A DNA stretch of 64,000 nt from Chloroflexota bacterium (GTDB lineage: Bacteria; Chloroflexota; Dormibacteria; CF-121), in assembly GCA_005881215.1 (NCBI GenBank), contig VBDZ01000008.1, positions 2,275 through 66,274 on the forward strand. Direction: 5' to 3'. The position numbers were made by a program, and so were the translations under genes. Shown here piece by piece: positions 39,738 to 64,000 of the stretch (the stretch's first letter is position 1; each line of letters opens with the position of its first letter). The notes under the pieces were generated by a model that was not told the origin of the DNA, ran no database searches, and saw only the letters and a program-made list of their open reading frames with translations.

Positions 39738-39740
39738 TCG

Positions 39741-43484: not shown

Positions 43485-43508
43485 CCAGTCATCTCGTTAA
43501 AGACAGCA

Positions 43509-43536
43509 CCCCGCGAAATCTTCCGATTTCGCGGGG
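43509..43536 (-). other. Perfect 11-bp intercistronic hairpin between cpaB and REC-cpaE
   Basis: ccccgcgaaat (43509-43519), loop cttccg, atttcgcgggg (43526-43536). It lies 29 nt after the cpaB stop and 24 nt before the cpaE ATG. Confidence 0.6.
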
Positions 43537-43565
43537 AGCCTGTCAACGTTTTTCTGTGGTCGGGT

Positions 43566-46002: not shown

Positions 46003-46668
46003 ATGAGCGAACGAGCGTCCTTCATCCTGGGACGGGCGCTGCCTCTGGGCGTGTTCGGCTTCCTGGTCGCCATCCAGGGCGAGCTCGCCTATGCCGGCGT
46101 TCAGCAGGCCTTCGCCGGGGTGATGGACCGGGCGCAGGTCATGTATCTCCTCAACCGTGTCCTGACCATCGCCTTCTTCGCCTTCCTGCTCGGCATCTAC
46201 ACCATTCGCCGCAAGGCGGTGGCCCACGACCACAATCCGGTGGCCGTCGCCGCAGCCCTGGTGGGCAGCTTCATCCTGTACGGGATTTTCCTGATCCCCG
46301 GCCAATCGCGCAGCACCGAGCTTCCGGTGCTCGCGTCGAGTGACATGCTGCTCGCCTGCGGCATGATCTGGGCTCTCTATTCGCTGACCTACCTGCGCAA
46401 CCGCTTCAGCATCGTGCCTGAGGCGCGCGGTCTGGTCACCACCGGTCCCTACCAGTTCGTGCGACATCCGATCTACCTCGGTGAGATCATCGCCGGCTTC
46501 GGTTTGGTGCTGCCCACCGTGTTCAGCCTGCATCTCCTGGTGTTCGCCGTCTTCCTGTGCGCCCAGGTGGCCCGCACCTATTTCGAGGAGCGGATGATGC
46601 GCACCGTCTATCCCTCATACGAGGCGTATGCCCGGCACACCTGCCGGCTCATCCCCTTCATCGTCTAG
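46003..46668 (+). CDS. Isoprenylcysteine carboxyl methyltransferase (ICMT)/phospholipid methyltransferase family membrane protein
   Basis: 221 aa, polytopic. Family motif GPYQFVRHPIYLGEII...EERMM. Confidence 0.8.
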   Translation: MSERASFILGRALPLGVFGFLVAIQGELAYAGVQQAFAGVMDRAQVMYLLNRVLTIAFFAFLLGIYTIRRKAVAHDHNPVAVAAALVGSFILYGIFLIPGQSRSTELPVLASSDMLLACGMIWALYSLTYLRNRFSIVPEARGLVTTGPYQFVRHPIYLGEIIAGFGLVLPTVFSLHLLVFAVFLCAQVARTYFEERMMRTVYPSYEAYARHTCRLIPFIV

Positions 46669-48262
46669 TAGATTGGCAAGCCTGCCCCGCTCCGCCGCCC
46701 CATCCCCAGCCGAGCAAGGTCCGGATCGCTGGCTGAGCCGAGCCGTGCGCTGGCTCGACCTGCCCCACTTCTTCACCATCGCCATCTTCGTGACGATGCT
46801 GATCGCGGCCATCCAGCCGGTCACCGACCCCGACTTCTGGTGGCATGTGACGACCGGCAACTGGATCCTGAGCCACCACGCGGTGCCCCGCACCGACCTC
46901 TTCACCTACACCGTCAGCGGCCACCGCTGGATCACCCACGAATGGTTGAGCGAGGTACTCCTCTCAACCCTCTACGCGGTTGGCCGGCTGCCGCTGGAGA
47001 GTTTCGCCCTGGGCGCGATTACCGCCGCCGGCTTCTTCCTGGTCTATCGGGCGATCGATCGCCGGGTGAACTTTGTGATCGCTGGACTGGCGCTCGCCCT
47101 CGGCGTGGCCGCGGCCAATCCGATCTGGGGACCGCGGATCCAGATGGTCACCTTCGCCCTGACGGCGCTGACCTACCTGTGGGTCAAACGGTTCTGCGAG
47201 GGCCACGGTCGGGCGCTCTATTTCCTGCCGGCGGTCATGCTCGTCTGGGTCAACCTCCACGCCGGATTCGTCGTCGCCTACGCGGTCGTCGGGACCGCGC
47301 TGCTGGTGGAGGGTCTGCGCTACCTGGCCCGCCGTCCCGGGGCGATGCCGATCGACCGGCTGAAGACGATGGGGATCGTGCTGCTTGCCGCGGTGGCGGT
47401 CGCCATCGTCAACCCCAACGGCTGGGACATCTACCTCTATCCCTTCCAGACCGGCGGCAGCCCGGAGCAGCAGCGGCTGATCGTCGAGTGGTTCTCCCCG
47501 AATTTCCAGATGTCGCAGATCTGGCCCTTCGAAGCCATGGTGTTCCTGATCATCGGCGGACTGGCTTTGGCGCGCCGCATCGAGCTGCGTCAGTTCCTCC
47601 TGCTGTTGCTCGGCCTGGGCCTGGCGCTGCACTCGGTCCGCAACCTCTCCTTCTTCATGCTGGTGGCGGTGCCCGCCCTGGCCGATTACGCCCAGCAGGC
47701 GCGCGAGCGCCTCCCCTGGCACTGGCCGCGGCGCCTGCCCCGGACGTCGATCGCCACCTTCTCCGTGAACGTCCTCATGGTTCTTCTGCTCTGCGCCGTG
47801 GTGGCGCTGGCCAGCGTCCCCAGCCTGGTGCAGCGCGTCGACGGCAAGCTCGTGGCCAAAGACTTCCCCATCAAGGCGGCCGACTTTCTCCTCCAGCATC
47901 CGGCGCCCGGGCACATGCTCAACGTCTACGGTTGGGGCGGCTACCTGATTTACCGGCTCTACGGCCACACCCCGGCGCAACCGGTTTTCATCTTTGGCGA
48001 CGCCGCCCTCGACGGCGACCAGCTGCTGCACGACTATTCCCACCTGCAGTCGCTGGGGTCGGACCAGCCGCAGTTGCTGGCGCGCTATCAGATCAACTGG
48101 GTCATCTTCCACTCGGATGATCCGATCATCACCGAGTTACGCCAGGACCATAACGCACCCGGCCACGTCGGGTGGTTCGAGCTGGGCAGCTTCGACAAGG
48201 CGACCATCATGCTGCGCGACACGCCGGAGAACCGCGCCTACGCTGCCGGGTCCGGCCGGTGA
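46628..48262 (+). CDS. GT-C-like polytopic membrane protein, family 1 (paralogue of 59227..60768)
   Basis: 544 aa (alternative TTG start at 46673). After TM1 it has DPDFWWHVTTGNWIL (46826-46846). It has many TM helices. YGWGGYLIYRL (47927-) lies at the start of a C-terminal soluble domain. Confidence 0.8.
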   Translation: MPGTPAGSSPSSSSRLASLPRSAAPSPAEQGPDRWLSRAVRWLDLPHFFTIAIFVTMLIAAIQPVTDPDFWWHVTTGNWILSHHAVPRTDLFTYTVSGHRWITHEWLSEVLLSTLYAVGRLPLESFALGAITAAGFFLVYRAIDRRVNFVIAGLALALGVAAANPIWGPRIQMVTFALTALTYLWVKRFCEGHGRALYFLPAVMLVWVNLHAGFVVAYAVVGTALLVEGLRYLARRPGAMPIDRLKTMGIVLLAAVAVAIVNPNGWDIYLYPFQTGGSPEQQRLIVEWFSPNFQMSQIWPFEAMVFLIIGGLALARRIELRQFLLLLLGLGLALHSVRNLSFFMLVAVPALADYAQQARERLPWHWPRRLPRTSIATFSVNVLMVLLLCAVVALASVPSLVQRVDGKLVAKDFPIKAADFLLQHPAPGHMLNVYGWGGYLIYRLYGHTPAQPVFIFGDAALDGDQLLHDYSHLQSLGSDQPQLLARYQINWVIFHSDDPIITELRQDHNAPGHVGWFELGSFDKATIMLRDTPENRAYAAGSGR

Positions 48263-49479
48263 CCGGCGCCGATCGGGCCGCCCGGCTGCGCCGCCGTCAA
48301 CGGCTCTTCCTGATTTTCACCGCGGTGCTCTGCGTGGCCTACGCCCGCCAGCTGCTCACCTCGCCCACCGCCGGCCAGGATTTTCGCGCCTTCTTCGCCG
48401 CCGCCACCGTGAGCGCCCACGGCGGCGACCCCTATGACTGGACCATCCTGGGCCGGACCGAGGACGCGCTCTACAACGCCCCCATCCATGCCCGACCCGG
48501 TGATCCGCGCTACAACGATTTCCTTCCCTTTCCGGAAGGGCCCTGGCTCGCGCTCGGGCTGCAGCCGCTGACCGGGTTCCCCTGGCAGGTCGTCTATCCG
48601 CTGTTCGCCGGCGTGATGCTGCTGGCGATCGCCGCCGGCGCCTGGCTCGTCCTGCTGCGGCTCGGCTGGCCGCCGGCGCGGCGGCGGATCGCGGTGGCCG
48701 CGACCGTCCTCTCCCCCATCGCCTTCCTCAACGTTTTCCAGGGACAGGTCAGCGCGCTCGTCTTTCTCGGGTTTGCCGGCGCCTGGTATCTCGCCGGCCG
48801 CGGCCGGCCGGTGTGGGCCGGGCTGGTGCTCACCCTCGTCTGGATCAAGCCGAATCTCGGAGTGGCGCTGCCGCTGGTGCTGCTGCTGCTCGAGCCGGCG
48901 TCCGTCACCCGGTTGCTGCTGGGTTTCGGCGGCGGCAGCGTCGTCGCCTTCGCCCTGGCAGCCCTGGCGCTGCCCGGCGTCCTGTGGCACTGGGCCAATG
49001 AGCTGATCTCCCACTGGCGCGCGGTGCAGGGCACCCAACCGGACGTCGCCTCGATCCACAGCCTCTACTACCCGGCGCTGACCGGCCCGCTCAAAACCGT
49101 GGCGCTGGTCATCGTGCTGGCGGGCGGTGCCGCCTATACGGTCTGGGCCGTCCGCCGCGGGCAGCAGGCGCGCGCCCGCGGCCTGACGGTGTTGCTGCTG
49201 TGGTTCGCGCTGCTGCCCTATGTCCACTCCTTCGACGCCATCCTCTTGCTGCCGCTGGTCGTGTTCTTGCTCGGACCGGATCTGCGCGGCTGGGCGGATC
49301 CATTGACCGAGGTGGTGGTCTGGGCCTTCGCGATCCTGCCCTTTGGCTACTTCATCGGCTTGCGGCTTGGATTTTTCAACGGCTTTACCGCAGTGCCGGT
49401 CCTCCTGCTCCTGCTCGCCTGGCATCAGCGAGTGATCCGCGACCGGCCGCGCGTCGTGCCGGAGGCGGTCGCCGCATGA
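48259..49479 (+). CDS. DUF2029/GT87-like membrane glycosyltransferase
   Basis: In ORF 48172..49479. GTG 48259 overlaps the upstream stop (GTGA). Motifs GQDFRAFFAAATVSAHGGDPY and WIKPNLG. Confidence 0.8.
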   Translation: MTGADRAARLRRRQRLFLIFTAVLCVAYARQLLTSPTAGQDFRAFFAAATVSAHGGDPYDWTILGRTEDALYNAPIHARPGDPRYNDFLPFPEGPWLALGLQPLTGFPWQVVYPLFAGVMLLAIAAGAWLVLLRLGWPPARRRIAVAATVLSPIAFLNVFQGQVSALVFLGFAGAWYLAGRGRPVWAGLVLTLVWIKPNLGVALPLVLLLLEPASVTRLLLGFGGGSVVAFALAALALPGVLWHWANELISHWRAVQGTQPDVASIHSLYYPALTGPLKTVALVIVLAGGAAYTVWAVRRGQQARARGLTVLLLWFALLPYVHSFDAILLLPLVVFLLGPDLRGWADPLTEVVVWAFAILPFGYFIGLRLGFFNGFTAVPVLLLLLAWHQRVIRDRPRVVPEAVAA

Positions 49480-50789
49480 CGACCTGGTGGGGCATCCGGC
49501 GGCTCTACGAGCCGCGCTTTTTAGAGCGGATCCTCCTCCTGTTGCTCCTGGTCGCCGCCGCCTACTATGCCGTCTTCGCGATCGTCCAGTGGACGACCTT
49601 GACCCCGGAGGCGCTGCGGTTCGATTTCGCGAACTATTTCGGCGGCGCCCAGGCGGCCGCGCACGGCAGCGACGTCTACGCCGACTTCAAGCGGTCGTGG
49701 GGAACCGAGGCCTGGGTGGTCGCCTACATCTACCCGCCCTTCTTCGCCGAGCTGCTCGCGCCGCTGACGCCGCTCGGGCTGGTAGGCGCCGCGCGGGTCT
49801 GGCTGCTCGCGGTGCACGCCGCGTTCTTCGGCTCGCTGGCGCTGCTGCTGCGCCTCCATCCCGAGCTGTCGCGCGCCGGCCGTCTGGTGCTGCTGGTGGC
49901 CGCGCTCGGCTTCATGCCGGTGTACCTCAACCTGAAGTTCCAACAGGTGGCGACGGTGTGGCTGCTGCTGGTGACGGCCGCGCTCTGGGCCGCGCTGCGG
50001 CGACGGGACGGCCTGGCCGGCGGCTTCATCGCGCTGGCCGCGTCGCTCAAGGTCGCCCCCATCTTCCTGATTCCGCTCTTGGCCCGACTGGGGCGGCGGC
50101 GGGTGGCGATCGTGGGCGGCGGGCTGCTGCTGGTGGTGACCGTGGTCACCATGCTGGCGTCACCGGGCAGCTGGCAATTCTTCACCGTCGTGCTGCCGCG
50201 CATCGGCCTGGGAACGGCGAACTGGGACAACGGCTCGATCGACGGGCTGGTCAGCCGCATCGTGGTGCTGGCGCCGCACCTGCTCGGCGGCGCCACCCAG
50301 ACGGCGGCAAAAGTCGTGATTGCGCTGGCCGCGGTGAGCGTCATCGGCGTGACCATCTGGCTGGCGGGCCGGGCCGCGAGCCACGATGGATGGACGATCC
50401 GGCTCGGCGTCGCCGCCCTGATGACGTCGCTGCTGATCGTCAGCAGCGTGACCTGGCAGCATCACCTGGTCACCCTGCTGCTGCCGATGGCGACCGCGCT
50501 GGCGTGGATCAGCGCGCGACGGCCGGGGGCGCGCTACGGCTGGGCCCTGATGGCCGCCTATGGGGCGTGCTGGATCGACCGTCGGGCGTTTCCCTTACCG
50601 GCGGACCTCCAGGTGCATTCGGCGTCGCAGGGGGCGCTGGTGCTGGCCGGCACCTCGGTGAAACTGCTCGGCCTGCTGCTGCTCTGGGGGCTGCTACTCG
50701 AGATGCTGCGCCGCGAGCGCAAGCTGATGGGTGCGCTCAGGCGGCCTGGACGACCGGCGGCCGCCGATGCTGTTGCGCCCGCTGCCTGA
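49476..50789 (+). CDS. DUF2029/GT87-like membrane glycosyltransferase
   Basis: In ORF 49200..50789. ATG 49476 overlaps the upstream stop (ATGA). Motifs RFDFANYFGGAQAAAHGSDVY, YIYPPFFA and SLKVAP. Confidence 0.8.
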   Translation: MTTWWGIRRLYEPRFLERILLLLLLVAAAYYAVFAIVQWTTLTPEALRFDFANYFGGAQAAAHGSDVYADFKRSWGTEAWVVAYIYPPFFAELLAPLTPLGLVGAARVWLLAVHAAFFGSLALLLRLHPELSRAGRLVLLVAALGFMPVYLNLKFQQVATVWLLLVTAALWAALRRRDGLAGGFIALAASLKVAPIFLIPLLARLGRRRVAIVGGGLLLVVTVVTMLASPGSWQFFTVVLPRIGLGTANWDNGSIDGLVSRIVVLAPHLLGGATQTAAKVVIALAAVSVIGVTIWLAGRAASHDGWTIRLGVAALMTSLLIVSSVTWQHHLVTLLLPMATALAWISARRPGARYGWALMAAYGACWIDRRAFPLPADLQVHSASQGALVLAGTSVKLLGLLLLWGLLLEMLRRERKLMGALRRPGRPAAADAVAPAA

Positions 50790-51903
50790 AGCGCCACCCG
50801 TACCACAAGACGACCGCGGTCATCACGATGGGCCCCAGCGGCAGGCCGACGCCGTGAAGGTCGATCAGCAGCGCCAGGTCGATGAGCAGCAGGCCGGGGA
50901 TCGGGTTGGGCAGGCGGCCCTCGAAAAAAAGGTCGACCGCGAGCCACGCCGGCACCGCCAGCATCAGCAGATCATGGGGAAGCGCATGCGGAGAGGCCAG
51001 CAGCGACAGCGCGACCGCCAGGACGGCGAAGCCGGTGGTTGACGCCGGCCGCCGCCAGGCGGTCAGCCCCAGCGCCGCCAGCACCGCCAGGTAGACGGCG
51101 ATCGCGACCGCCGTCGCCGCCACGGCTGGGAGCGCCGGGCCGAGGACCCCGATCCAGGCCTCGTCGAGACGGATCGCCACCGCCTGGTTGGCGCGCAGCG
51201 CGTTGTGCACCATGGCGGCCATGCCACCGGCGCCGGCCGCCAGCGGGCTCATCAGGACGAGGGTGGCTGCGACGCCGGCGACCAGCAGCATTCGCCAACG
51301 CCGGGCCGCCAGCACGACCAGCAGGTACGCCGGCAGGTACTGCGGCTTGATCGCGAGCAGCGCGCCGCCGGCGGCCGCCAGCCCCCACCGGTCCCGGCTC
51401 AGCGCCGCGACCAGCAGCGCGCCACCGACAACCAGCAACGGAGTCACCTGTCCTTCGGTCAGCGCGGTCCAGGTGGGGACGGCGGCCAGCAGCCCCAGCA
51501 TGGCGAACGCCGGCGCCTTGCGGTCCAGCGGTCGCGCCCGCTGCAGGATGAGGACCGCCACCAGCAACAGCGCCGCGGCGACGATCTGCCAGACGCGAAA
51601 TGCGAGGTCGATCGAGAGCAGCGAGAGGGCGGCAAACGGCAGGGCGGCGACCAGCGGCAGGCTGAAGGGCAATCGGGGGTCGATCGCCCCGTCCGGCGCC
51701 ACCCGACGCATGGTGTCAGCGAGCGCGGCCTGCCGATAGGGGGCGGCGAAGTGGCCTTGTCGGACCAGCACGCCCGCGCTGTAGTTGATGGTGAAGTCGG
51801 AGGACAGCCGCGCCGCGCGCGGCTGCAGCAGGATCACGAGGAAGCCCGCCGCCGCCAGGGCGACGACCAGCGCCAGCATGGCCTGATGCAACGGTCGCCT
51901 CAC
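50737..51903 (-). CDS. DUF2029/GT87-like membrane glycosyltransferase
   Basis: In ORF 50737..52506. GTG 51903 overlaps the upstream stop (GTGA) and has an AGGTG RBS. Motifs SSDFTINYSAGVLVRQGHFAAPY and AIKPQY. Its 3' end overlaps the convergent gene by 53 nt. Confidence 0.75.
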   Translation of the reverse strand: MRRPLHQAMLALVVALAAAGFLVILLQPRAARLSSDFTINYSAGVLVRQGHFAAPYRQAALADTMRRVAPDGAIDPRLPFSLPLVAALPFAALSLLSIDLAFRVWQIVAAALLLVAVLILQRARPLDRKAPAFAMLGLLAAVPTWTALTEGQVTPLLVVGGALLVAALSRDRWGLAAAGGALLAIKPQYLPAYLLVVLAARRWRMLLVAGVAATLVLMSPLAAGAGGMAAMVHNALRANQAVAIRLDEAWIGVLGPALPAVAATAVAIAVYLAVLAALGLTAWRRPASTTGFAVLAVALSLLASPHALPHDLLMLAVPAWLAVDLFFEGRLPNPIPGLLLIDLALLIDLHGVGLPLGPIVMTAVVLWYGWRFRQRAQQHRRPPVVQAA

Positions 51904-53501
51904 GGTTGCACCTGGAAGACGGCCGCATCCCCCTCGCGGTCGACGATGCGCAGCCGCGGGTCGTCCCGCAGCCGCTGGACGAAGCCCGGATCCGTCGCCA
52001 GCACGTAATCGATGTGGTTCGCCTGAGCAAAGGCGGCGCGCTCGGCGGTTGACCAGCGGGTGAAGAAGGCCAGCGCCTGGTCGGCCTTGCGACCGGCGTC
52101 GATCGTCATTTCCGGATGCCCGGTGAAGGCGCGGGCGCCCGACTGCGCCGGGACGAAGATGCCGTCCAGATAGGTCGTCAGGACCACGTCTTGCGCGGTG
52201 ACCTGCGGCGCCAACCGAGCCAGCAGCGCGGCTTCGGCGCGGCTTTCGTACTCGGCTCGTGGATCCAACCGGAACGCGGCAATCCAGTATGGCTGCGTCA
52301 GGCTGAGGATGCCGTAAAAGCTCGACACCGCCACGGTGCTGACCAGCAGGCGTCGCCGCCACGCCACCGAACGGACGCCGCGGAGCATCGTGAGCAACCC
52401 CGGCGCGGCGCAGAGACCAAACGGCACCGAGCTGGCCATGAAGCTGCGTCCGAGGATGCCACTGATGCCGGGCGCAAACATGAAGACCGTCATGCCCGCA
52501 ATCCACAACGCGGGCAGCAGCAGATCACCGCGAAGGCGTCGCCGCCAGATGGCGATGACGATGAGGACCGTGGCGACCAGGTGCGACAGCACCAGGAAAC
52601 CGAACGGGTCTCCGACATCGAGCGCCGGGCGGATCACCCGCAAGGCGTCGGGGGCGGTGGCCCAAATCCACAGCAGGTAACCGAGGTAGGGCAGCTGCAG
52701 GGCGGCGCCCGCGACGGCAAACCAGATCGCGCGCCGGTGCCGGCGCGCCAGCGACCAGCCGAACAGGCAGGCCACGGCGAGCAGGGCGAGTTGCGGATAG
52801 ATCAACTGCAGCCCGAGGATGGCGCCCAGCCCACTGATGAGCACGCTTGCGGAGTCACGGTGACGCAGACGAAGACCAGCGGTCATGGCCCAGCACATCA
52901 ACGCCATCGCCCATGGCAGATGCGGGGCCATGCCGACCAGGTCAGCCACGCTGCTTCCCGGCGAGGTCATCTCGGTCGCGTGGCTGACGAACGGACCAAG
53001 GTGGATGTCGTGCGGGAGCAGCGCGCCGATCCCACCGCCCAGGATGCACAGCGCAAACGCCCAGCGCCTCACCAGTCGGGGGCGGAACAGCTCGGCGATC
53101 AGCAACCAGACCGAGCTCAGCAAGGCCGCGCCGGCCGCCAGCCGGCCGAGATGATAGAGCCAGGGACCGGTCGCCCAGCCAACCAGGTGGGCCGGCCACA
53201 GATACCAGGGATACAACACGATGCCGGGTAACGACTCCGAGCTGTAGGGCGAATGGAAGAGCCAGGCACCCTGCCACCCGGCGCGCCAGAGGGCCTGGTA
53301 GACCTCGGCGTCGCGGGCAATCACGACGTATCCCGTAAAAACGCTACCGGCCGGCGTCCGGATCCCGGCCAGCAGGATCGGTGGCATCGTCATCAGGCAG
53401 AGGGCGGCGAGGAACACGACGGACCGGGTAACGCGCAGCCGACGCGGCCGGGGCGACTCGTTGCCGGGCTCCTCGTACCGGCGCGGGCGCGCGAGCGCCA
53501 T
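51900..53501 (-). CDS. GT-C-like polytopic membrane protein, family 2 (ArnT/PMT-like; paralogue of 56096..57724)
   Basis: 533 aa. After TM1 it has FTGYVVIARDAEVYQALWRAGWQGAWLFHSPYSSE. It has many TM helices and a C-terminal soluble domain ending DREGDAAVFQVQP. Confidence 0.8.
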   Translation of the reverse strand: MALARPRRYEEPGNESPRPRRLRVTRSVVFLAALCLMTMPPILLAGIRTPAGSVFTGYVVIARDAEVYQALWRAGWQGAWLFHSPYSSESLPGIVLYPWYLWPAHLVGWATGPWLYHLGRLAAGAALLSSVWLLIAELFRPRLVRRWAFALCILGGGIGALLPHDIHLGPFVSHATEMTSPGSSVADLVGMAPHLPWAMALMCWAMTAGLRLRHRDSASVLISGLGAILGLQLIYPQLALLAVACLFGWSLARRHRRAIWFAVAGAALQLPYLGYLLWIWATAPDALRVIRPALDVGDPFGFLVLSHLVATVLIVIAIWRRRLRGDLLLPALWIAGMTVFMFAPGISGILGRSFMASSVPFGLCAAPGLLTMLRGVRSVAWRRRLLVSTVAVSSFYGILSLTQPYWIAAFRLDPRAEYESRAEAALLARLAPQVTAQDVVLTTYLDGIFVPAQSGARAFTGHPEMTIDAGRKADQALAFFTRWSTAERAAFAQANHIDYVLATDPGFVQRLRDDPRLRIVDREGDAAVFQVQP

Positions 53502-54820: not shown

Positions 54821-54878
54821 GACGACGGTGTAACGCCCGGTGTGAGGAACCCCTTCTGCCGGCCGTTATAGCTGGGTC

Positions 54879-56117: not shown

Positions 56118-57724
56118 TTCGGCCGGTGCCGCCACCGTCGGCGCGGCCTCGGCACGCCCCGCGCTTCGCGCTGGTCTTCGCGATCGCGGTTGCCATCGCC
56201 TCGCTGGTTCCCTACCTGCTCGCCTACCTGTGGACGCCGCCCGGTCATCACTTCGCCGGTTTCTTCTTCATCGCCGACGACGCCACCACCTACCTGGCGA
56301 AGATGCGCCAGGGCGCGCAGGGATCCTGGTTGTGGAACGACCCCTACACCAGCGAGGCGCACGGCGGCGTCTTTCTGTTCGGCTTCTACCTGCTGTTCGG
56401 CCAGCTGGCGGGCCTGCTGCATCTGCCCCTCATCGCCGCCTATCACCTCGCCCGGGTGTCGGGAGCGATCGCGCTCGTGCTGTCGGCCGATCGGCTCTGC
56501 CGCCGCCTGCTCGCGCCCGAGCTTCGCCGGCTGGCGCTGGCGCTCGTGATCCTGGGATCTGGCGTCGGCGTCCTCGCCCAGGTCGCCGGCAATCCCTCCA
56601 TCTTCGGCAGCAAGCTCGAGGCGCTCGACCTCCACCTCCCCGAGCTGAGCGGCTGGTACTCCATCCTGGCGATCCCGCATTTCGCCTGGGCCACCGCGCT
56701 GATCATCGTCGCGCTGCTCGGCCTGCTCGAGATCGCCGACCGGCCGCGCTGGCAGTCCCTGGCGGTGACGTCGATGGCGTTGATCGCGCTGACGGCCATC
56801 CATCCGCAGATGATCCCGGTGCTCGGCATCATCTGGTGCGCCTACCAGGCGGTGCTGGCCTGGTGGGGGCGGCGGCCGGGGTGGCGGGCGCTGGCGGCAC
56901 AGACCGTTCCCTTCGTCGCCACCATTCCGCTGCTCGCCTACAACGCCTGGATCCTCTTTCGCGATCCAACCATCGCCGAGTGGGCGCGCCAGTGGCGACA
57001 CCAGGCGCCCGGGCCACTCAGCCTGGGGCTGAGCCTCGGCCTGCCGCTGCTGCTGGGCATCGCGGGGATGGTACTCGCCTGGCGCCGCCGCGACCAGGGG
57101 CTGGCGCTGCTGATGGTCTGGCCGCCGCTGGTGTTCCTGTTGCTCTACCTGCCCAACGTCGCGAACATCCAGCGCCGCCTGCTGGATGCCCTCTACGTCC
57201 CGCTCGGCATCCTGGCGGCGGTCGGGCTGCAGGCGCTGGTCCACCGGTTCAACCCGGTCCAGGCTCGCCGCATCAAAGCCGCTCTGCTCACTGTCTGCTG
57301 CCTCTCATCGGCGATCGTGCTGGCCATCGCGCTGCGCTTCGCCTCGGGCGCGTTTGCTGAGGCGTACATCAGCAACGACGCCTGGCACGCGATGCAGTGG
57401 CTCTCGGCCCATCACCAGCCGGCAGACCGCGCCCTTTCCTCGCCGCAGGCCGGGCAGCTGCTGCCCGCCTGGTCGGGCGTCAGCGTCTACGTGGGGCACT
57501 ACAGCGAGACGCTGAATTATTTCCAGAAGCTCCGCAACGAGGCCGCGGTGCTGCGGTCGGATGCCGCGGCGTCGACCGTGCGGTCGTTTCTTTCGGCCAA
57601 TGGCGTCACCCTGCTCTACTGGGGGCCCGACGAGGCAGCCACCGGCTTCCAGCCCCAGCTCCAACCCTACCTCGAGCCGGTGCACCGGGATGGCAGCGTC
57701 ACGATCTACCGGGTGCTGCCCTAG
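56096..57724 (+). CDS. GT-C-like polytopic membrane protein, family 2 (ArnT/PMT-like)
   Basis: In ORF 55328..57724, starting at ATG 56096 (or GTG 56126). FAGFFFIADDATTYLAKMRQGAQGSWLWNDPYTSE. The C-terminal soluble domain ends HRDGSVTIYRVLP. Confidence 0.8.
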   Translation: MAAALPLIRPVPPPSARPRHAPRFALVFAIAVAIASLVPYLLAYLWTPPGHHFAGFFFIADDATTYLAKMRQGAQGSWLWNDPYTSEAHGGVFLFGFYLLFGQLAGLLHLPLIAAYHLARVSGAIALVLSADRLCRRLLAPELRRLALALVILGSGVGVLAQVAGNPSIFGSKLEALDLHLPELSGWYSILAIPHFAWATALIIVALLGLLEIADRPRWQSLAVTSMALIALTAIHPQMIPVLGIIWCAYQAVLAWWGRRPGWRALAAQTVPFVATIPLLAYNAWILFRDPTIAEWARQWRHQAPGPLSLGLSLGLPLLLGIAGMVLAWRRRDQGLALLMVWPPLVFLLLYLPNVANIQRRLLDALYVPLGILAAVGLQALVHRFNPVQARRIKAALLTVCCLSSAIVLAIALRFASGAFAEAYISNDAWHAMQWLSAHHQPADRALSSPQAGQLLPAWSGVSVYVGHYSETLNYFQKLRNEAAVLRSDAAASTVRSFLSANGVTLLYWGPDEAATGFQPQLQPYLEPVHRDGSVTIYRVLP

Positions 57725-57749
57725 CGCCGCATCATCTATTACGGTCGAG

Positions 57750-58511
57750 CTAGGCCGACGCGCGTCGCTCGCCCGCTTTGTTGACGCCCGGGGTCGGGTG
57801 CGCGCGGACCCGATTCGGGATGGCGAGCAATTCGAGGAACATCGTGGCGGAGTGCCGGATCGGATGGACCCGGCTCTGCGGCGAGTTGATCCAGCGGGTC
57901 GGCACCTCGACGATCCGGTAGCCCGCCCGCTTCGCCCGGTAGAGCACCTCGACGTCGAAGCCGAAGCCGCGGGTCTGCAGCGAAGGAAAGACTCGCTCCG
58001 CGACTTCCGCCGTGAAGGCTTTGAAGCCGCACTGGGTGTCGGCGACGCCGCCGAAGACGAAGATCCGCACCAGCCGGTTGAAGATCTTCCCCATCGTCTC
58101 CCGGTACCAGGGCTGGTGCAGCTCGACCTGCGAATCGCGCAGCCCGCGGGAGGCGATCGCCACCCCCGCCCCGCCGCGGAGCGGCCGCAGCAGCTTTTCC
58201 AGGTCGTCGATGGGCACGCTGAGGTCGGCATCGCTGAAGACCCGGAAGCGACCGCGGGCGGCCGCCATGCCGAGTCGCACCGCAGCCCCCTTGCCGCCGT
58301 TGCGCTCGGCCGCGACCAGCCGCAGCTGGGGCCAGCGCGCCGCGCGCTGGCGAACGATCTCCGCGGTACCGTCCCGGCTCCCGTCGTCGACCACGATCAC
58401 CTCGGCCGGGGTGCCGGTCGTGGCCAGATAACGCTCGACCCGGTCGAACGTCGCCGGCAGCCGGAGCGCCTCGTTGTACGCCGGAATGATGATCGAGATT
58501 TCCGGCGTCAT
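57750..58511 (-). CDS. GT2 family, Dpm1/ALG5-like polyprenyl-phosphate glycosyltransferase
   Basis: 253 aa: ISIIIPAYNE, VVDDGSRDGT, NGGKGAAV, FSDADLS. The ATG overlaps the upstream stop (ATGA). Confidence 0.85.
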   Translation of the reverse strand: MTPEISIIIPAYNEALRLPATFDRVERYLATTGTPAEVIVVDDGSRDGTAEIVRQRAARWPQLRLVAAERNGGKGAAVRLGMAAARGRFRVFSDADLSVPIDDLEKLLRPLRGGAGVAIASRGLRDSQVELHQPWYRETMGKIFNRLVRIFVFGGVADTQCGFKAFTAEVAERVFPSLQTRGFGFDVEVLYRAKRAGYRIVEVPTRWINSPQSRVHPIRHSATMFLELLAIPNRVRAHPTPGVNKAGERRASA

Positions 58512-59230
58512 GCGGCGTTCTCCACTTTGCGCATCTCGGCGCGGAAGGCGAACAACTCTCCGAACGCTCGCAGCACCACCCGCGGGTTGGCACCCGTCTG
58601 CTTCCCGGATCGGCGTGGGTAGTGATGCACCGGGACTTCCACCACCCGGGCGTGCATCTGGCGGGCCAGCACCAGCAGCTCGGTGTTGACCAGGGCGCCT
58701 TCGGCATGCAGCACCATGCCGGTGAGCAGGTCACGGCGGATCAGCTTGAAGGCGCAGTTCACGTCCCGGACCAGCCGGCCGAACAGCAGGCGGACCAGGG
58801 TGAAGAATGCCCAGGCATTGAGTCGGCGGGTCAAGGGATCGCGCCGGTGCCGGCGGTAGCCGGCCACGATGTCCGCCTCCGCCGCCCGCGCCAGCAGCAG
58901 GCCGATCTCCGCCGGGTCGAACTGGTTGTCGGCATCCATCAGGAAGACCCAGGGCAGGCGGGCCGCGTCGAATCCCGATCGGACGGCGGCACCATAGCCG
59001 CGATTGACCGGGTGGCGGACCACCCGAAGGTTGGAGTGCACCACCTTCAGCCGCTCCAGCACCGCCGGCGTGTCGTCGCGGCTGCCGTCGTCGACCACGA
59101 TGATCTCGAAGCTGCGAGCCTGAGCGGCCAGCGCCTCGGCGGTGCGGCCGACCGCTTGCTTCAGGTTGGTGGCCTCGTTGAAGGCGGGCATGACGGCGCT
59201 GATGTCCATCGACGGCGCAACCCGTCTCAT
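58508..59230 (-). CDS. GT2 family, Ppm1/Dpm1-like polyprenyl-phosphate glycosyltransferase
   Basis: 240 aa: ISAVMPAFNE, VVDDGSRDDT, NRGYGAAVRSG, LMDADNQFD. The ATG overlaps the upstream stop (ATGA). Confidence 0.85.
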   Translation of the reverse strand: MRRVAPSMDISAVMPAFNEATNLKQAVGRTAEALAAQARSFEIIVVDDGSRDDTPAVLERLKVVHSNLRVVRHPVNRGYGAAVRSGFDAARLPWVFLMDADNQFDPAEIGLLLARAAEADIVAGYRRHRRDPLTRRLNAWAFFTLVRLLFGRLVRDVNCAFKLIRRDLLTGMVLHAEGALVNTELLVLARQMHARVVEVPVHHYPRRSGKQTGANPRVVLRAFGELFAFRAEMRKVENAA

Positions 59231-60768
59231 GGTTGGAAGCCTACTCGCGTGAACACCGTCGCCACCCCGTCCCGGGTCATCAGCCGCCAGCCGGGATCAC
59301 GCTGCAGCAAACCGACCAGCGGATGGGCGCTGGGCACGACGATCGCATCGGGATTGGCCCGGGCGATCACGGCCGGCCAGCCCTCGGCCAGGTAGCTCAC
59401 CTGGAGGTACTCGCTGAAGATCCGCGAGCCGTAGACCTCGACCCGGCCGTCGATGAAGACCCGTCCGCCGCCGGGGTACAGGCGCCAGACGAGGTAGCCG
59501 CCGTAGTCGTAGTAGTTGAAGATCCGCAGCGGCCGGCCGATTCGCTCCAGCGCCGCGGTCGATTCCACCGGCAGCACCACCCTGATGGCGGCCGCCTGGT
59601 TGGCGGGTTGCAGGTTGGGCAGCGCGCGGTAGCCCAGCATGCCGGCGCCGACCGCCAGCAGGAGGGCCAGGTTGATGGCGCCGAGCGCCACGCCCGGCCC
59701 GGCGGGCCGAGCCGGCGACCAGCGGAATGCCGCCGCGCTCATCGACCGCTGGGCCACCGGCGCCAGTTCGCCCGCGAGCTCGAGCAGCGCCTGGGCGCAG
59801 CGGCCGGCCAGCGGCGCGGCGCCCAGGATGAAGAGCGGCACGTTCCGTTGGGAGGCCAGCCCCAGGTAGAGCAGGGCGAAGGCCAGCAGCCATTCACTCG
59901 TCCGGGCGGTCACCCGGCGGGTCGCCAGCCCGGCAAGCAGCAGGAAGAGAAAGACCTCGAGCATCAGCCCCGCGGTGGAGTGGAAATCCGGCGAGGCCCA
60001 CTCCTGGATGTTGTTCTGGATCAAGGGCGAGGTCAGGGTGCCCAATGGGAAGAGGACCGTCTGGATGCCAAAGGGGTTGACGAGGGCGAGCGCTGTGGCG
60101 GCGGCGACCGCCAGGCCCAATGCGCGGATCCGCCGCAGCGGCATCGGGGCGGCGCGGTGAAGCCAGGCGTCGAGGCCTTCGCCGGCGACGAACAACAGGC
60201 TGATGATCACGCCGACCAGGAAACCCGAGTGCAGGTTGGCCCAGAGCCAGATGAAGGGCGGGAGCATCCACGCCCGCAGGTGACGGTCGCGATAGCGGGC
60301 CAGCCCGACCAGCAGCACGCCGGTGAAGAGCAGGTTGAGCAATTGCGGGCGCGCCCCCCAGGCGGTCGAACCGGCGAGCGCCCCGACGAGCGTGAGCCCC
60401 ACCGCGGCGCTCGGGTTAAGGCCGGTCCGCCGGAGCAGGTGATAGAGGCAGAGCGCGGCCCCCGTCACCGCGAGGGCCGCGATCGCGACCAGCAGCGGCA
60501 GGCCGCCGAGCTGGTAGAGGCCGTACATGCCGAGATCGGCGAGCCACTCATGCATCACCCACGGTTGGCCGGCGGCGCTGAACGAATAGACGTCGACGTG
60601 CGGAATCGACGCCGTGGTCAGGATCAGCCGCCCGTTGGCGAGATGCCACCAGAGGTCGGGATCGAGCGGCGGGACTGCGGCGAGGCTGAAGATCGCCACG
60701 AACAGCAGGCCGCGCAGCACCAGGGCACTGGTCAACCGGCGCAGCAAGCCGGCCAGGGCAGGCATCAT
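59227..60768 (-). CDS. GT-C-like polytopic membrane protein, family 1 (paralogue of 46628..48262)
   Basis: 513 aa. After TM1 it has DPDLWWHLANGRLIL (from 60663). YYDYGGYLVWRL (59491-59514 encodes YYDYGGYL) lies at the start of the C-terminal soluble domain. Confidence 0.8.
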   Translation of the reverse strand: MMPALAGLLRRLTSALVLRGLLFVAIFSLAAVPPLDPDLWWHLANGRLILTTASIPHVDVYSFSAAGQPWVMHEWLADLGMYGLYQLGGLPLLVAIAALAVTGAALCLYHLLRRTGLNPSAAVGLTLVGALAGSTAWGARPQLLNLLFTGVLLVGLARYRDRHLRAWMLPPFIWLWANLHSGFLVGVIISLLFVAGEGLDAWLHRAAPMPLRRIRALGLAVAAATALALVNPFGIQTVLFPLGTLTSPLIQNNIQEWASPDFHSTAGLMLEVFLFLLLAGLATRRVTARTSEWLLAFALLYLGLASQRNVPLFILGAAPLAGRCAQALLELAGELAPVAQRSMSAAAFRWSPARPAGPGVALGAINLALLLAVGAGMLGYRALPNLQPANQAAAIRVVLPVESTAALERIGRPLRIFNYYDYGGYLVWRLYPGGGRVFIDGRVEVYGSRIFSEYLQVSYLAEGWPAVIARANPDAIVVPSAHPLVGLLQRDPGWRLMTRDGVATVFTRVGFQP

Positions 60769-60807
60769 CGTTGTAACGGCCGGGTCACGGACATCCTTCG
60801 TGGGTGG

Positions 60808-61530
60808 TTAGCGAGGCTCGCGTAAGACGCGCAGCACGAAGCGCGGCAGGGCCAGCATCCGCCGCCAGCGCCACGGCTCCCGGCCCAGCCGGTGCAGCCA
60901 CTCGAGCCCGTGCTCACGCATCCAGGGCGGCGCCCGCCGCGACCGCCCGGAGATGAAGTCGAAGGCACCCCCCACGCCCATGCCGACGATCGCGCCGGAG
61001 CCGGCCAGGTTGCGCGCCAGCCAGGCTTCCTCGGCGGCGGCGCCGTAGGCGAGGAAGAGCAGCTGGGCGCCACTCGAGCGAATCGCCTGGGTGATCCCCG
61101 CATCGTTGAACCGGTCGGGCGACCCCGCGTCGGTCCCGGCAAGCTGAAAGCCGGGGAATCGCTCCCGCAACGCCGCGCCCGCTGCCTCGGCGACCCCCGG
61201 CGCGCCGCCGAGGAAAAAGAATCGCCAGCCCTCGCTTCCGCCCCGCGCGGCCAGCGATTGGAGCAGGTCAACCCCGGCCACCCGGCCGGGCAGAGGATGG
61301 CGGATCCGGCGGGCCGCCCACAGCACGCCGGCGCCGTCGGCCAGCGCCAGGTCCGCGCGCGCAAGCACGGCGGCAAACTCCGGATCGCGGGCGGCCCGCA
61401 TGATCCGTTCGGGGTTCACGCTGATGATCAATCGCGGCCGACGTTCCGCGATCGCCCGGGTCACCCAGTCCACCGCCTCGGCTTCTGTCATCGGGTCGAT
61501 CGGGACCCCGAGGAGGGTGAAACGGGTCAC
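60808..61530 (-). CDS. WecB/TagA/CpsF family glycosyltransferase (GT26)
   Basis: In ORF 60808..61767. GTG 61530 overlaps the upstream stop (GTGA). VTRFTLLGVPIDPMTEAEAVDW..., GVDLLQSL, FFLGGAPGVAE. Confidence 0.85.
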   Translation of the reverse strand: MTRFTLLGVPIDPMTEAEAVDWVTRAIAERRPRLIISVNPERIMRAARDPEFAAVLARADLALADGAGVLWAARRIRHPLPGRVAGVDLLQSLAARGGSEGWRFFFLGGAPGVAEAAGAALRERFPGFQLAGTDAGSPDRFNDAGITQAIRSSGAQLLFLAYGAAAEEAWLARNLAGSGAIVGMGVGGAFDFISGRSRRAPPWMREHGLEWLHRLGREPWRWRRMLALPRFVLRVLREPR

Positions 61531-62666
61531 GCCGCGAGTGCCTGCCGGTAGACCTCCGCGGTCTCGCGCCCCAGGCGCTCGACACTGAACGCCGTCGATC
61601 GTTTCAGCCCGGCCTCGCGCAGCCGGCGCTGCTCGTTGTCGAATCGAAGGAGTCGCTCTATCGCCTGGGTGAGTTCTTCCACGCTTTCGGTGCGGAGCAC
61701 CACGCCGGCCTGGTCGACCAGTTCGACCAGCGCGTCCGCCGACGACACGATCACCGGCGCTCCGCACGACATCGCTTCCAGAACCGGGAGGCCAAAGCCC
61801 TCGTAACGCGAGGGATAGCTGAAGACGGCGGCGCCGCTATAGATCGCGGGCAGGACGTCTCGCGGCACGTAGTCGAGCGCGATCACATGTCCGCGTGGTC
61901 CGGGCAGCCGCAGCTGTCGGGCGAGACGTTCGGCCCCGCGGTTGACGCGGCCCACGAAGACGAGCGCCGAATCGTCGGCCAGGTCGGGAGGCAGCAGCTC
62001 GTAGGCCGAGCGCAGCCGTGGCAGGTCCTTGCGCGGGTCGACGGTGCCGACATAGAGGACGTAGCGCTCGGGAAGACCGTACTGCTTGCGGACAGTCGCG
62101 ATCTCTTCCGCCGGTCGCGGCGTGAAGATGGCGTCGGCGCAGAGGGGGACATAGCTGACCCGCTCCGGCGCGATATGGTACAGGTCGATGACCTGGCGGC
62201 AGACCGCTTTCGAGGAGACCATCACCCGGCGTGCCCGGCGAATACTCGGCGGGCCAAGGGTCCCGAAGTACCAGCGGGCCCGTGGATGCATGTCTTCGGG
62301 ACGAGCCCGATAGGCGAGGTCGGGCACGGTCAGCACCAGCGGTGCGGCATTGAGCAGCGGCGCCACCCCGAGCACCGAATGCAGCAGGCGCAGCGATTGA
62401 GGATAGGCGCCAAACCGCCAGGGCAGCGACCATTGTTCGCGGCCAAGCCGCAAGCCACGCGGCACCTTCGCGAAGGGCACCAGCCGATGACCGCGGGCCG
62501 CGTCGCCCAGTTCGGACATTACGTCGGCGGGAACGAGCACGTCAACCGAGACGCCGACCGCGCGCAAGCCGCGCAGGATATGCAGCGCGTGATGCTCGAG
62601 GCCGGTGAAGGGTTGCGCCGCAAACAGCAGATCGACCGCAATCCCTTCGGCGGCGACATTCGACAC
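61527..62666 (-). CDS. GT4 family (GT-B) glycosyltransferase
   Basis: 379 aa, with the E-x7-E region PSRYEGFGLPVLEAMSCGAPVIVS. Confidence 0.88.
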   Translation of the reverse strand: MSNVAAEGIAVDLLFAAQPFTGLEHHALHILRGLRAVGVSVDVLVPADVMSELGDAARGHRLVPFAKVPRGLRLGREQWSLPWRFGAYPQSLRLLHSVLGVAPLLNAAPLVLTVPDLAYRARPEDMHPRARWYFGTLGPPSIRRARRVMVSSKAVCRQVIDLYHIAPERVSYVPLCADAIFTPRPAEEIATVRKQYGLPERYVLYVGTVDPRKDLPRLRSAYELLPPDLADDSALVFVGRVNRGAERLARQLRLPGPRGHVIALDYVPRDVLPAIYSGAAVFSYPSRYEGFGLPVLEAMSCGAPVIVSSADALVELVDQAGVVLRTESVEELTQAIERLLRFDNEQRRLREAGLKRSTAFSVERLGRETAEVYRQALAA

Positions 62667-62704
62667 GTCGCGGATGCTAGCGGAACCCTAGGGCCTCGGG
62701 CCGC

Positions 62705-63793
62705 GTGATCATCGGCATCGACGGGACGCCGGCGGTGCGGCGCGTGGCGACCGGAACCGAGATCTATGCCAGGAGCATCATCGAGGCGCTGGCCAGATTG
62801 AGGGGCGAGCGCACGATGCGCGTCTTCGCCAACGCCGTCGAGCGGCCGTTATGGCTGGCGCCTGGCGTGGAATGGCGTGGCATCCCCTTTCCGCGCTTGT
62901 GGACCCACTGGCGGCTGCGACAGGCGCTGCGACGCGAACGCCCCGACGTGACGTTTATTCCCAGCCACGTACTGCCGGTCGCGCTGGGGCTACGTGCAGT
63001 CGTCACCATCCACGACCTCGGACACCGGCGGGAGCCGCGATCCTACACCCACGCGGCGCGCTGGTACCTGGAAGCCACGACCCGCTACGCCGCCCGCCGG
63101 GCGAGTCGGTTGATCGCCGTGTCGCAATCGACCGCGGACGACCTGGCTCGCTACTACGGGGTGCCGGGCGGGCGCATCGCGGTGGTGCATTCTGGGATCG
63201 GTCCCCGGTTCAACCCCCAGAGCCCTCGCACCGTGCAGGAGGTTACCCATCGTCTTGGCATTTCCGGCCCCTACTTTCTCTACGTCGGGCGCAACCACCC
63301 GCGAAAGAATCTGCCGATGTTGCGACGCGCCTTCGACGACGCGCGGCGGCGCGGACTGGAGGCGACGCTGGTGCTGGCCGGACCTGGTCACGATCCGGCC
63401 TCGAGCGATCCGGTGCGGGTGCTGCCGTACATACCGGACGGCGAGCTGCCGGCGCTCTACGCGGGCGCGCTGGCCCTGACGCTGCCCTCGCGGTTCGAAG
63501 GTTTTGGCTTTCCGGCGCTGGAGGCGATGGGCTGCGGCACGGCGGTGATCGCCTCGACCGCCGGCGCGCTCCCCGAAATTGTTGGCACCGCCGGGATTCT
63601 GCTGAGCCCCGATGATGCCGGCGCCTGGAGCCAGGCCCTGCTCGAGCTGGCCGGCGACCCCGCGCTGCAGCGCCGGCTGATCGCAGCCGGCAGTGCGCGC
63701 GCCGCCACGTTTACCTGGGAGGCCGCGGCCGAGAAGACCTGGCGGGTGCTCGAAGCCGTCGCCCGGCAGGGTCAGCCGGCGACCGCGGCGTAA
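62705..63793 (+). CDS. GT4 family (GT-B) glycosyltransferase
   Basis: 362 aa, GTG start: PSRFEGFGFPALEAMGCGTAVIAS. Divergent from 61527..62666 across a 38-nt spacer. Confidence 0.88.
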   Translation: MIIGIDGTPAVRRVATGTEIYARSIIEALARLRGERTMRVFANAVERPLWLAPGVEWRGIPFPRLWTHWRLRQALRRERPDVTFIPSHVLPVALGLRAVVTIHDLGHRREPRSYTHAARWYLEATTRYAARRASRLIAVSQSTADDLARYYGVPGGRIAVVHSGIGPRFNPQSPRTVQEVTHRLGISGPYFLYVGRNHPRKNLPMLRRAFDDARRRGLEATLVLAGPGHDPASSDPVRVLPYIPDGELPALYAGALALTLPSRFEGFGFPALEAMGCGTAVIASTAGALPEIVGTAGILLSPDDAGAWSQALLELAGDPALQRRLIAAGSARAATFTWEAAAEKTWRVLEAVARQGQPATAA

Positions 63794-64000
63794 ACCTCGC
63801 GGTGCGCGGCGGCGCTCGCCGACCAGGTGAAGAGGGACGCCCGGGCTCGGCCGGCAGCGACCTGACGCTCGCGCAGCTCGGGGTCCTGCAGGATTCGCCG
63901 CAGATTCTCGGCCACCGCCGCGACGTCCTCGGGATCGCAGAGCAGGGCCGCATCACCGGCCACCTCCGGGATGGCTCCCGCGGTCGACGCGATCACCGGC
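63772..64000 (-). CDS. GT4-like glycosyltransferase, C-terminal part only (runs off the right edge)
   Basis: The minus frame reads ...VIASTAGAIPEVAGDAALLCDPEDV...FTWSASAAAHREVYAAVAG*. Its 3' end overlaps the convergent gene by 22 nt. Confidence 0.7.
   Translation of the reverse strand, partial: PVIASTAGAIPEVAGDAALLCDPEDVAAVAENLRRILQDPELRERQVAAGRARASLFTWSASAAAHREVYAAVAG

Follow-up and report, generated by a model that had tools for sequence, protein, structure and literature searches.

Organization of the glycosyltransferase cluster

The stretch of DNA analyzed here (hereafter the window) comprises 64,000 nucleotides of contig VBDZ01000008.1 from a Dormibacterota genome deposited as Chloroflexota bacterium (GCA_005881215.1), with a G+C content of 62-72%. 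A block of glycosyltransferase (GT) genes begins at position 46003 and ends at about 66100, ~20 kb in all, and contains the genes of nine membrane enzymes (A to I) assigned to the GT-C superfamily, which is characterized by 7-13 transmembrane (TM) helices and an extracytoplasmic loop after the first, TM1 (PMC11127046). On the forward strand, the block opens with a polytopic methyltransferase of the PEMT/ICMT superfamily (46003-46668), followed by A (46628-48262), B (48259-49479), and C (49476-50789); D (50737-51903), E (51900-53501), and F (53501-54820) lie on the reverse strand, and G (54879-56117) and H (56096-57724) on the forward strand. Two GT2 genes, GT2a (57750-58511) and GT2b (58508-59230), are followed on the reverse strand by I (59227-60768), a GT26 gene (60808-61530), and the GT4 gene GT4a (61527-62666), and then by GT4b on the forward strand (62705-63793) and the 3′ end of GT4c on the reverse strand (63772-64000). 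The original prediction had counted at least three GT4 genes; the window contains two complete ones and breaks off within the third, which occupies 63772-64857 in window coordinates. Past position 64000, contigs with an identical GT4b carry this third GT4 gene, a weak GT9-like gene, mreB, murA, and the ATP synthase operon, which places the end of the cluster ~2 kb beyond the window, at mreB-murA-atp (contigs L001-L003; gene calls with Pfam assignment of GT4c, Pfam and NCBIfam assignments of MreB and MurA). A tenth GT-C gene, J (29597-30886, forward strand), is unlinked and lies beside an asparaginase II gene.

All ten GT-C open reading frames (ORFs) had been proposed from the DNA letters, and all are intact and encode polytopic membrane proteins. 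They are uninterrupted, with third-codon-position GC of 0.78-0.91, as in real genes of this genome, and independent gene calls in near-identical metagenome contigs gave identical lengths for F (439 aa), G (412), H (542), I (513), GT2a (253), GT2b (240), and GT26 (240). The GT26 gene is thereby 60808-61530 and not the longer ORF to 61767, and the start of A may be the TTG at 46673 (529 aa, the length of many homologs) instead of the ATG at 46628.

The cluster genes form six alternating transcription units, and the seven predicted stop/start overlaps of 1-4 nt are each present as written: GTGA at 48259 and ATGA at 49476 on the forward strand, and GTGA at 51900, TGATG at 53501, ATGA at 58508 and 59227, and GTGA at 61527 on the reverse strand. 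The cluster genes are translationally coupled, and the 3′ ends of C and D overlap by 53 nt. The two divergent intergenic regions inside the cluster are short, 58 nt (54821-54878) and 38 nt (62667-62704); neither leaves space for a pair of conventional promoters and their leaders, which suggests that the mRNAs are leaderless or that the promoters overlap.

All ten proteins have 6-11 hydrophobic segments, and the loop after TM1 is 42-80 aa long and poor in K/R in all except D. The acidic/aromatic motif described for every protein directly after the first hydrophobic helix lies in this long loop throughout, except in F, where an N-terminal extension shifts it to the loop after the third segment. 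Helix maps of the structural models of A and E agree with this. An outward-facing acidic loop had also been expected; in a crude positive-inside analysis, B, C, E, F, and H came out with an inner N-terminus and an outer motif loop, the result was ambiguous for A, G, I, and J, and D showed the reverse. The predicted topology therefore leans mainly on homology to solved GT-C enzymes, among them PimE, in whose structure the position equivalent to the acidic loop, at D58, is periplasmic (PMC12041525).

Six of the ten membrane enzymes belong to GT87

All-against-all BLASTP reproduced the division of the ten proteins into three sequence families. The largest comprises B, C, D, F, G, and J, of which C, G, and J share ~32% identity with each other, whereas B, D, and F are linked more weakly and were joined to them through a common match to Pfam GT87 (PF09594, gathering threshold 25 bits). 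G, the best-scoring member (123.4 bits), C (102.4), and J (101) passed this threshold, as did, at lower scores, the divergent B (47.2) and D (45.4) and, lowest of the six, F (31.7). F is the most divergent member, has an extra N-terminal block of membrane segments, and also gave a weak Pfam match to PIG-U. No PF09594 match was obtained for A, E, H, or I, which are not GT87 members. The original prediction had held that the family composition differs from that of mycobacterial lipomannan (LM) and lipoarabinomannan (LAM) synthesis; with six of ten proteins in GT87, the LM/LAM family itself, the locus is less foreign than claimed.

A phmmer search of G against Protein Data Bank (PDB) sequences returned nothing useful; however, a profile built from the six GT87 sequences matched the Mycobacterium abscessus PimE structure 9dm5 over nearly its full length (E 3.3e-14). 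PimE is of the GT-C(A) subclass, with D58 as catalytic base at the tip of juxtamembrane helix 1, Y62 as the essential partner of D58, and K195 as a phosphate ligand (PMC12041525). The equivalent of K195 is kept in all six paralogs and that of D58 is in register in five, being one residue off in F (K262 conserved), while the equivalent of Y62 is kept in G, C, and J only, and the W-x-H-H motif mainly in those three. All seven active-site equivalents are conserved in G, and all align in C (D50, Y54, Q157, K192, W327, H329, and H330); D46, Y50, and K190 are conserved in J, D41 and K197 of B align with D58 and K195, and D36 and K186 are conserved in D. On the PimE equivalog model NF009915, the set scored 24-80 bits (best G, 79.6) against a cutoff of 413, and its members are GT87 paralogs and not PimE orthologs. 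All characterized GT87 enzymes use polyprenyl-phosphomannose and act on the lipoglycans LM, LAM, and phosphatidylinositol mannosides (PIM) (PMC12041525, and established knowledge). At ~25-30% identity, GT87 membership gives only a lean toward mannose as the likely donor sugar.

Two unnamed GT-C families, A/I and E/H

The other two families, A with I (29% identity over 499 aa, E 1.8e-51) and E with H (29% identity, E 1.9e-35), gave no match in Pfam or NCBIfam, and phmmer searches of A and E found no PDB sequence. The AlphaFold (AF2) model of A (pLDDT 72, pTM 0.73) was compared by Foldseek: STT3 subunits were the sole matches with E <= 0.001 (E 2e-5 to 8e-4, probability 1.0; TM-scores 0.46-0.50), and the next, weaker matches were the GT-C-fold proteins PIG-U, Pmt1/2, and PIG-M. 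For the model of E (pLDDT 64), the top 19 of 19 matches were GT-C enzymes (DPY19, STT3, AftA, PglB, and ArnT) at probability 1.0, including AftA 8if8 at E 3e-5, after which the probability dropped to <=0.3.

Just after TM1, A carries the motif D67-P-D69..W72-H73, kept in at least 97% of 73 A-family sequences in an alignment that takes in orthologs at ~40% identity; I has LDPDLWWH at this place. In the E/H family, D64 of E is invariant in 130 of 130 relatives (~23% mean identity) with the consensus DGNSYLAKMRQG, and H has IADDATTY. When the three families were compared by hhalign with shallow alignments, nothing was found (probability <1%); with deeper alignments, the C-terminal soluble domains of A/I and E/H proved homologous (probability 95%, E 2e-8). 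A WWD, W.D[YW]G, or WWDYG-type motif was absent from A, I, E, and H, as was a Pfam STT3 match, and A was on these two grounds rejected as a true oligosaccharyltransferase of family GT66. The models indicate that A, I, E, and H are GT-C enzymes with an STT3-like or ArnT-like fold, outside GT66; the fold of I and H is predicted only through their homology to A and E.

The GT-C assignment is thus supported in each of the three families: six proteins score above the GT87 threshold, the significant structural neighbors of the models of A and E are all GT-C proteins, and no match to a non-glycosyltransferase family was found.

Homologs of A and E came almost only from metagenome-assembled genomes (MAGs) named Candidatus Dormibacteraeota or, under an older label, ‘Chloroflexi bacterium’; they have no Pfam domain and, wherever a source gives them a name, it is ‘hypothetical protein’. 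An exhaustive search with an E/H profile recovered 4,519 representative clusters at E <= 1e-3 and 626 at E <= 1e-30, the named members, all ‘hypothetical’, being from Chloroflexota (Anaerolineales, Ardenticatenaceae) and Dormibacterota. By this profile, the E/H family reaches well beyond Dormibacterota and is not unique to this genome. A homolog search with the broad E/H profile returned close relatives only, a Pfam scan of 75 diverse members gave marginal matches only (DUF6541, DUF6798, Dpy19, and DUF2206), and the profile matched 3vu0, which we take to be an AglB C-terminal domain, marginally (E 0.024).

Distant E/H members, taken from four representatives, sit in glycan loci. In an Ardenticatenaceae genome (L083), the neighbors are Wzz, a weak MptA/B-like GT-C, a GMPPB-like nucleotidyltransferase, and a PMT gene; in an Anaerolineae genome (L085), a small GT2, a GT4, and a DegT aminotransferase; and in a MAG (L086), a small EamA-like transporter, a faint YfhO-like GT-C match, Wzm/Wzt, and a sulfotransferase-like gene. 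In a second MAG (L087, 8001-12176), the family occurs as part of a 1391-aa fusion of an N-terminal YfhO-type GT-C domain with an E/H domain (residues 796-1357); a TMEM260_N-type gene and a UbiA prenyltransferase gene lie near the fusion gene.

Soluble glycosyltransferases and a membrane methyltransferase

The tandem GT2 genes had been described as Dpm1/Ppm1-like, and their nearest relatives are indeed the polyprenyl-phosphate glycosyltransferases DPMS (dolichol-phosphate-mannose synthase), ArnC, and GtrB. GT2a (PF00535, E 2.5e-32) matched best the Pyrococcus furiosus DPMS 5mlz (8.6e-21, residues 4-205) and GT2b (PF00535, E 1.8e-29) ArnC 9hwj (7.6e-25, residues 4-214), with DPMS also matching; both matched GtrB 5ekp. 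The matches cover ~200 residues of catalytic domain; both proteins consist of this domain only, and no TM segment was found in either. Two such adjacent genes fit, indirectly, the putative use of lipid-phosphate-linked donors by the GT-C enzymes.

The GT26 and GT4 assignments proved firm in Pfam and NCBIfam. The 240-aa GT26 protein (WecG/TagA/CpsF) scored 184 bits on PF03808 (threshold 27.4) and 137.5 bits on TIGR00696 (cutoff 69), and gives end-to-end alignments to the TarA, WecG, and EpsA models, while remaining under every equivalog cutoff, including that of WecG (e.g., TarA, 114 versus 350). Characterized GT26 enzymes act on polyprenyl-diphosphate-linked acceptors. GT4a (PF00534, E 4e-27) and GT4b (PF13692, E 9e-25; PF13439, E 4e-19) are generic GT-B enzymes, and the GT4 genes gave partial matches to the MshA, MSMEG_0565, and glycolipid-anchor synthase models.

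The gene at 46003 was weighed as a steroid or polyprenol reductase from a weak Steroid_dh match; this was rejected, since the PEMT and ICMT scores (2.9e-12 and 2.3e-6) are far better and its RHPIY (154) and EE (195) motifs fit a methyltransferase (RHPxY, EE). It is the immediate upstream neighbor of A in nearly all related loci long enough to include this region (L004-L082). We know of no described GT-C system with a PEMT/ICMT-like methyltransferase partner.

A compact core and its expansion

A scan of Genome Taxonomy Database (GTDB) species representatives gave 212 stretches with A-family relatives, and the best 79 loci were examined by tblastn with all cluster proteins. These loci were almost wholly from Dormibacterota MAGs, with a few records under other taxon names, and took two forms. 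In the expanded form (L004-L040; A 58-83% identical), the order of the window recurs, from the histidine kinase gene upstream of the cluster through the methyltransferase and A to H to GT2a and onward, although some close relatives (e.g., L020, L024, L025, L033, L036, and L040) lack B, D, or F individually. In the compact form (L041-L082; A ~40% identical), the methyltransferase, A, H, two GT2 genes, GT26, GT4b, and GT4c are followed by murA, with mreB before it in some loci. Most compact loci are without GT87, E, and I; an H ortholog was found in nearly all that are long enough, and GT4b in most such loci. L041, L061, and L073 are intermediate, carrying I, C, or E.

This compact core is kept in ~40 divergent Dormibacterota genomes, and the ancestral system comprises two GT-C enzymes and two polyprenyl-phosphate-sugar synthases. 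As judged from the gene content of these loci, the nine-enzyme array is a lineage-specific expansion, formed by duplication (A to I, H to E) and by the addition of five clustered GT87 genes, with insertion between A and H. The compact loci gave no GT4a match; in two of them that were examined at this position, a CE4 polysaccharide deacetylase gene (PF01522, E 3e-25) takes its place between GT26 and GT4b (L053, 15319-16338, and L068, 15341-16348, both on the reverse strand), which hints at a core glycan holding a de-N-acetylated amino sugar.

Proposed pathway

From family membership and gene context, the locus is probably an assembly line for a polyprenyl-linked cell-envelope glycopolymer. The host is a member of Dormibacterota, for which a monoderm envelope with peptidoglycan is predicted (10.1101/2021.08.23.457424; PMC10608941). 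A phosphoglycosyltransferase encoded elsewhere would start a polyprenyl-diphosphate-linked primer, which would be extended on the cytoplasmic face by the TagA/WecG-like GT26, the GT4 enzymes, and the GT9-like enzyme. The two soluble GT2 enzymes would load two different sugars onto polyprenyl monophosphate and, after flipping, the GT-C enzymes would add these sugars singly to the growing glycan on the outer face. In the core, the number of GT-C enzymes (one A-family and one H-family) equals the number of donor synthases (two), and the nine GT-C enzymes of the expanded form presumably make extra linkages and branches from the same two donors, one of them probably mannose. The family and fold assignments, the conserved catalytic residues, the translational coupling, and the conservation and expansion of the cluster are direct results of the analysis; from them we infer the identities of the donors, the order of steps, the acceptor, and any attachment to peptidoglycan. 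A wall-associated polymer is favored because of the mreB-murA adjacency, the TagA-like enzyme, and the predicted monoderm, peptidoglycan-making host.

Several observations weigh against this reading. Confidence in the models of A and E is moderate (pLDDT 72 and 64), their TM-scores to GT-C structures are only 0.4-0.5, and, as noted, the positive-inside analysis left A, G, I, and J ambiguous and gave D a reversed topology. The GT2 pair scored far below the equivalog cutoffs (47-90 bits versus 325-529 for ArnC, PpgS, AglJ, and DPhHxTase), and their sugars are not assignable from these scores. As originally reported for the window, genes for an initiating phosphoglycosyltransferase, a flippase (GtrA, SMR, MATE, Wzx, or ABC), a polymerase, an LCP-type ligase, and nucleotide-sugar synthesis were not found in or beside the cluster, either in the window or in the extension on related contigs, which reaches the ATP synthase operon. 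No flippase family was seen among the flanking genes and no dedicated GtrA/SMR/MATE gene in the cluster, where a hidden small gene is excluded because no gap between genes is longer than 58 nt. Conservation beside the cluster also extends to the flanking Tad-pilus and mreB-murA genes, and part of the clustering could reflect general synteny instead of functional linkage. Finally, the host is uncultured and the proposed pathway is read from its genes.

Three other explanations were weighed against these data. The GT4 enzymes could make a glycolipid anchor in the cytoplasm, as PimA/PimB and MgtA do, on which, after flipping, GT87 and other GT-C enzymes would build a mannan, giving a membrane-anchored lipoglycan like lipomannan with no link to peptidoglycan. 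Six GT87 paralogs with PimE active-site residues, in a family whose characterized members all act on PIM/LM/LAM lipoglycans (PMC12041525, and established knowledge), agree with such a product, as do the DPMS-like GT2a and the GT4 matches to MshA, MSMEG_0565, and glycolipid-anchor synthase models. It is nonetheless unlikely, since the conserved core contains GT26, of a family that works on polyprenyl-diphosphate-linked intermediates, and is without any GT87; moreover, no phosphatidylinositol-related gene is present, and the GT87 set is far from the PimE cutoff (24-80 versus 413 bits). That each GT-C enzyme instead draws on a shared lipid-sugar donor to decorate a different envelope molecule (wall polymer, lipids, or proteins), the genes being grouped by local duplication and synteny, seems quite unlikely: the core set stays together in ~40 divergent genomes, and stop/start overlaps tightly couple GT-C genes with those of GT2, GT26, and GT4. 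Such independent modules would nevertheless agree with the six alternating transcription units and with the individual absence of B, D, or F in some close relatives, which is typical of dispensable Gtr-type decorating enzymes (PMC11127046).

The structural matches bear on a glycoprotein pathway, in which GT26 and GT4 would build a polyprenyl-diphosphate oligosaccharide that an STT3-like A moves en bloc to an S-layer protein or Tad pilin, with the other GT-C enzymes decorating. STT3 subunits are the only significant matches of model A, model E also matches STT3 and PglB, the E/H profile has its marginal match (E 0.024) to 3vu0, presumably the AglB C-terminal domain, and a Tad pilus locus is conserved directly upstream in both cluster forms. 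However, A, I, E, and H have neither a WWDYG-type motif nor a Pfam match to STT3, any GT-C enzyme would be expected to reach the TM-scores seen with STT3 (0.46-0.50), and no candidate acceptor protein was identified in the analyzed loci; the pairing of two core GT-C enzymes with two polyprenyl-phosphate-sugar synthases fits the transfer of monosaccharides. We thus regard this pathway as very unlikely, and prefer the polyprenyl-linked glycopolymer.

Comparison with known envelope pathways

No match to a characterized pathway was found, and the cluster was not described in any paper that we found. Among the closest known systems, mycobacterial PIM/LM/LAM synthesis (PimA/PimB' of GT4, Ppm1 of GT2, PimE/MptC of GT87, and MptA/MptB) shares the cytoplasmic GT4 steps, a GT2 of the polyprenyl-phosphate-mannose type, and multiple GT87 enzymes with a catalytic Asp and a phosphate-binding Lys (PMC12041525). 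In contrast, the locus, from a different phylum, has no PimE ortholog, its core consists of two unnamed GT-C families with GT87 a late addition, and its GT26 implies a polyprenyl-diphosphate primer instead of a phosphatidylinositol anchor. With mycobacterial arabinogalactan synthesis (WecA, WbbL, GlfT1/2, Wzm/Wzt, AftA-D, EmbA/B, and Lcp1), the locus has in common a cytoplasmic polyprenyl-diphosphate linker, many GT-C enzymes using polyprenyl-monophosphate sugars outside the membrane, and cell-wall gene neighbors. However, neither the Emb/Aft arabinosyltransferases, including AftD-type enzymes, nor the UbiA/DprE decaprenyl-phosphoarabinose pathway was found among the scanned window genes or the extension, galactofuranosyltransferases and an LCP ligase were not found among the window genes, no ABC exporter lies inside the locus, and the donors would come from GT2 enzymes.

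Three-component systems (GtrA/GtrB/GtrX, CsbB/GtcA/YfhO, GacI/GacL, and GT136) likewise pair a GtrB/DPMS-type GT2 with outside GT-C transferases (PMC11127046), but the Dormibacterota locus has neither a flippase gene nor room for one, has nine GT-C enzymes for two synthases, and appears to build a glycan rather than merely decorate one; its GT2 enzymes are without the C-terminal membrane anchors of GtrB and ArnC. The linkage enzymes of wall teichoic acid and enterobacterial common antigen, TagA/TarA and WecG, resemble the 240-aa GT26 (137-184 bits on family models), whereas TagO/WecA, TagB/F, and TagGH genes were not found nearby. The GT66 enzymes STT3, PglB, and AglB supply the best structural matches of model A and are among the best of model E, with a similar architecture of a membrane domain and a C-terminal soluble domain, yet A, I, E, and H are much shorter (510-545 aa) and without the WWDYG motif and a Pfam STT3 match. 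What differs from known logic is that the core enzymes come from two GT-C families without a curated model, that GT26 and a membrane methyltransferase belong to the core, and that there is no local flippase. The cluster had been put forward as an undescribed glycan system; its product, acceptor, and two GT-C families are indeed undescribed, but the pathway is of a well-known kind and brings no new principle, and the nine-gene array is an expansion of a smaller conserved core.

Dormibacterota are abundant and occur worldwide in soils, permafrost, and Antarctic deserts; to our knowledge, no member has been cultured and nothing is known of their cell surface. The locus gives concrete and conserved genetic access to their envelope, for which it predicts a complex glycopolymer assembled outside the membrane, and offers testable targets to specialists in envelopes and glycobiology. 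It also exposes two GT-C families without a curated model, of which E/H has thousands of members in Chloroflexota and Dormibacterota, and its compact and expanded forms show how a two-enzyme system became a nine-enzyme one. Characterization of the product would show that mycobacterial-style assembly of the envelope by multiple GT-C enzymes is not confined to Actinobacteria, and would yield two new CAZy families with defined catalytic motifs. More tentatively, and as a possibility that we hold to be doubtful, the conserved core might make a phylum-wide and possibly essential wall-associated glycopolymer with two GT-C families new to CAZy, which two duplications and five clustered GT87 enzymes would have turned, in this lineage, into a complex, mannan-like outer glycan layer; the mycobacterial arabinogalactan/lipomannan envelope would then have an independent counterpart outside the Actinobacteria, one that might aid persistence in cold, dry soils.

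Genomic surroundings

Directly upstream of position 46003 are a HisKA_3 histidine kinase gene and a Tad/Flp pilus locus (36582-44309) with two T2SSE ATPases, two T2SSF proteins, a response-regulator-ParA protein, and RcpC. At the equivalent upstream place in the compact locus L053 (4324-8663), an RcpC gene and a T2SSE ATPase are found; a secretin was not seen in the pilus loci of either the window or L053. Farther upstream in the window are genes for HPF, SecA, and RF2, the GT87 gene J, FtsEX with M23 and S41 peptidases, and pyruvate dehydrogenase genes, and the first 20 kb consist of unrelated housekeeping genes.

PIG-L de-N-acetylases and ABC-2 transporters can both serve glycan pathways, and each occurs in the window. 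A PIG-L family de-N-acetylase gene lies at 1924-2724, >35 kb from the cluster. An ABC-2 pair, composed of an ATPase with a DrrA-like C-terminal domain and a permease, lies at 8355-10995 and was rejected as a glycan exporter, being 35 kb off with unrelated genes between. A bacterial homolog of the eukaryotic lipase maturation factor is encoded at 11562-12944 (LMF1, E 1e-62; LMF1_C, E 1e-52).

The RF2 gene, prfB (31496-32620, reverse strand), has a classic programmed +1 frameshift. Its ORF0 starts with the ATG at 32609 and ends in AGGAG CAT CTT TGA C, with CTTTGAC at 32540-32546, and the RF2 body runs on in the +1 frame to 31496; the mechanical ORF is therefore just 288 aa, and the PCRF model matched only from position 57. 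Between secA (33296-35872), which bears its own SEC-C motif, and prfB lies an 81-aa ORF (32613-32858, reverse strand) with a SEC-C-type zinc motif at its end.

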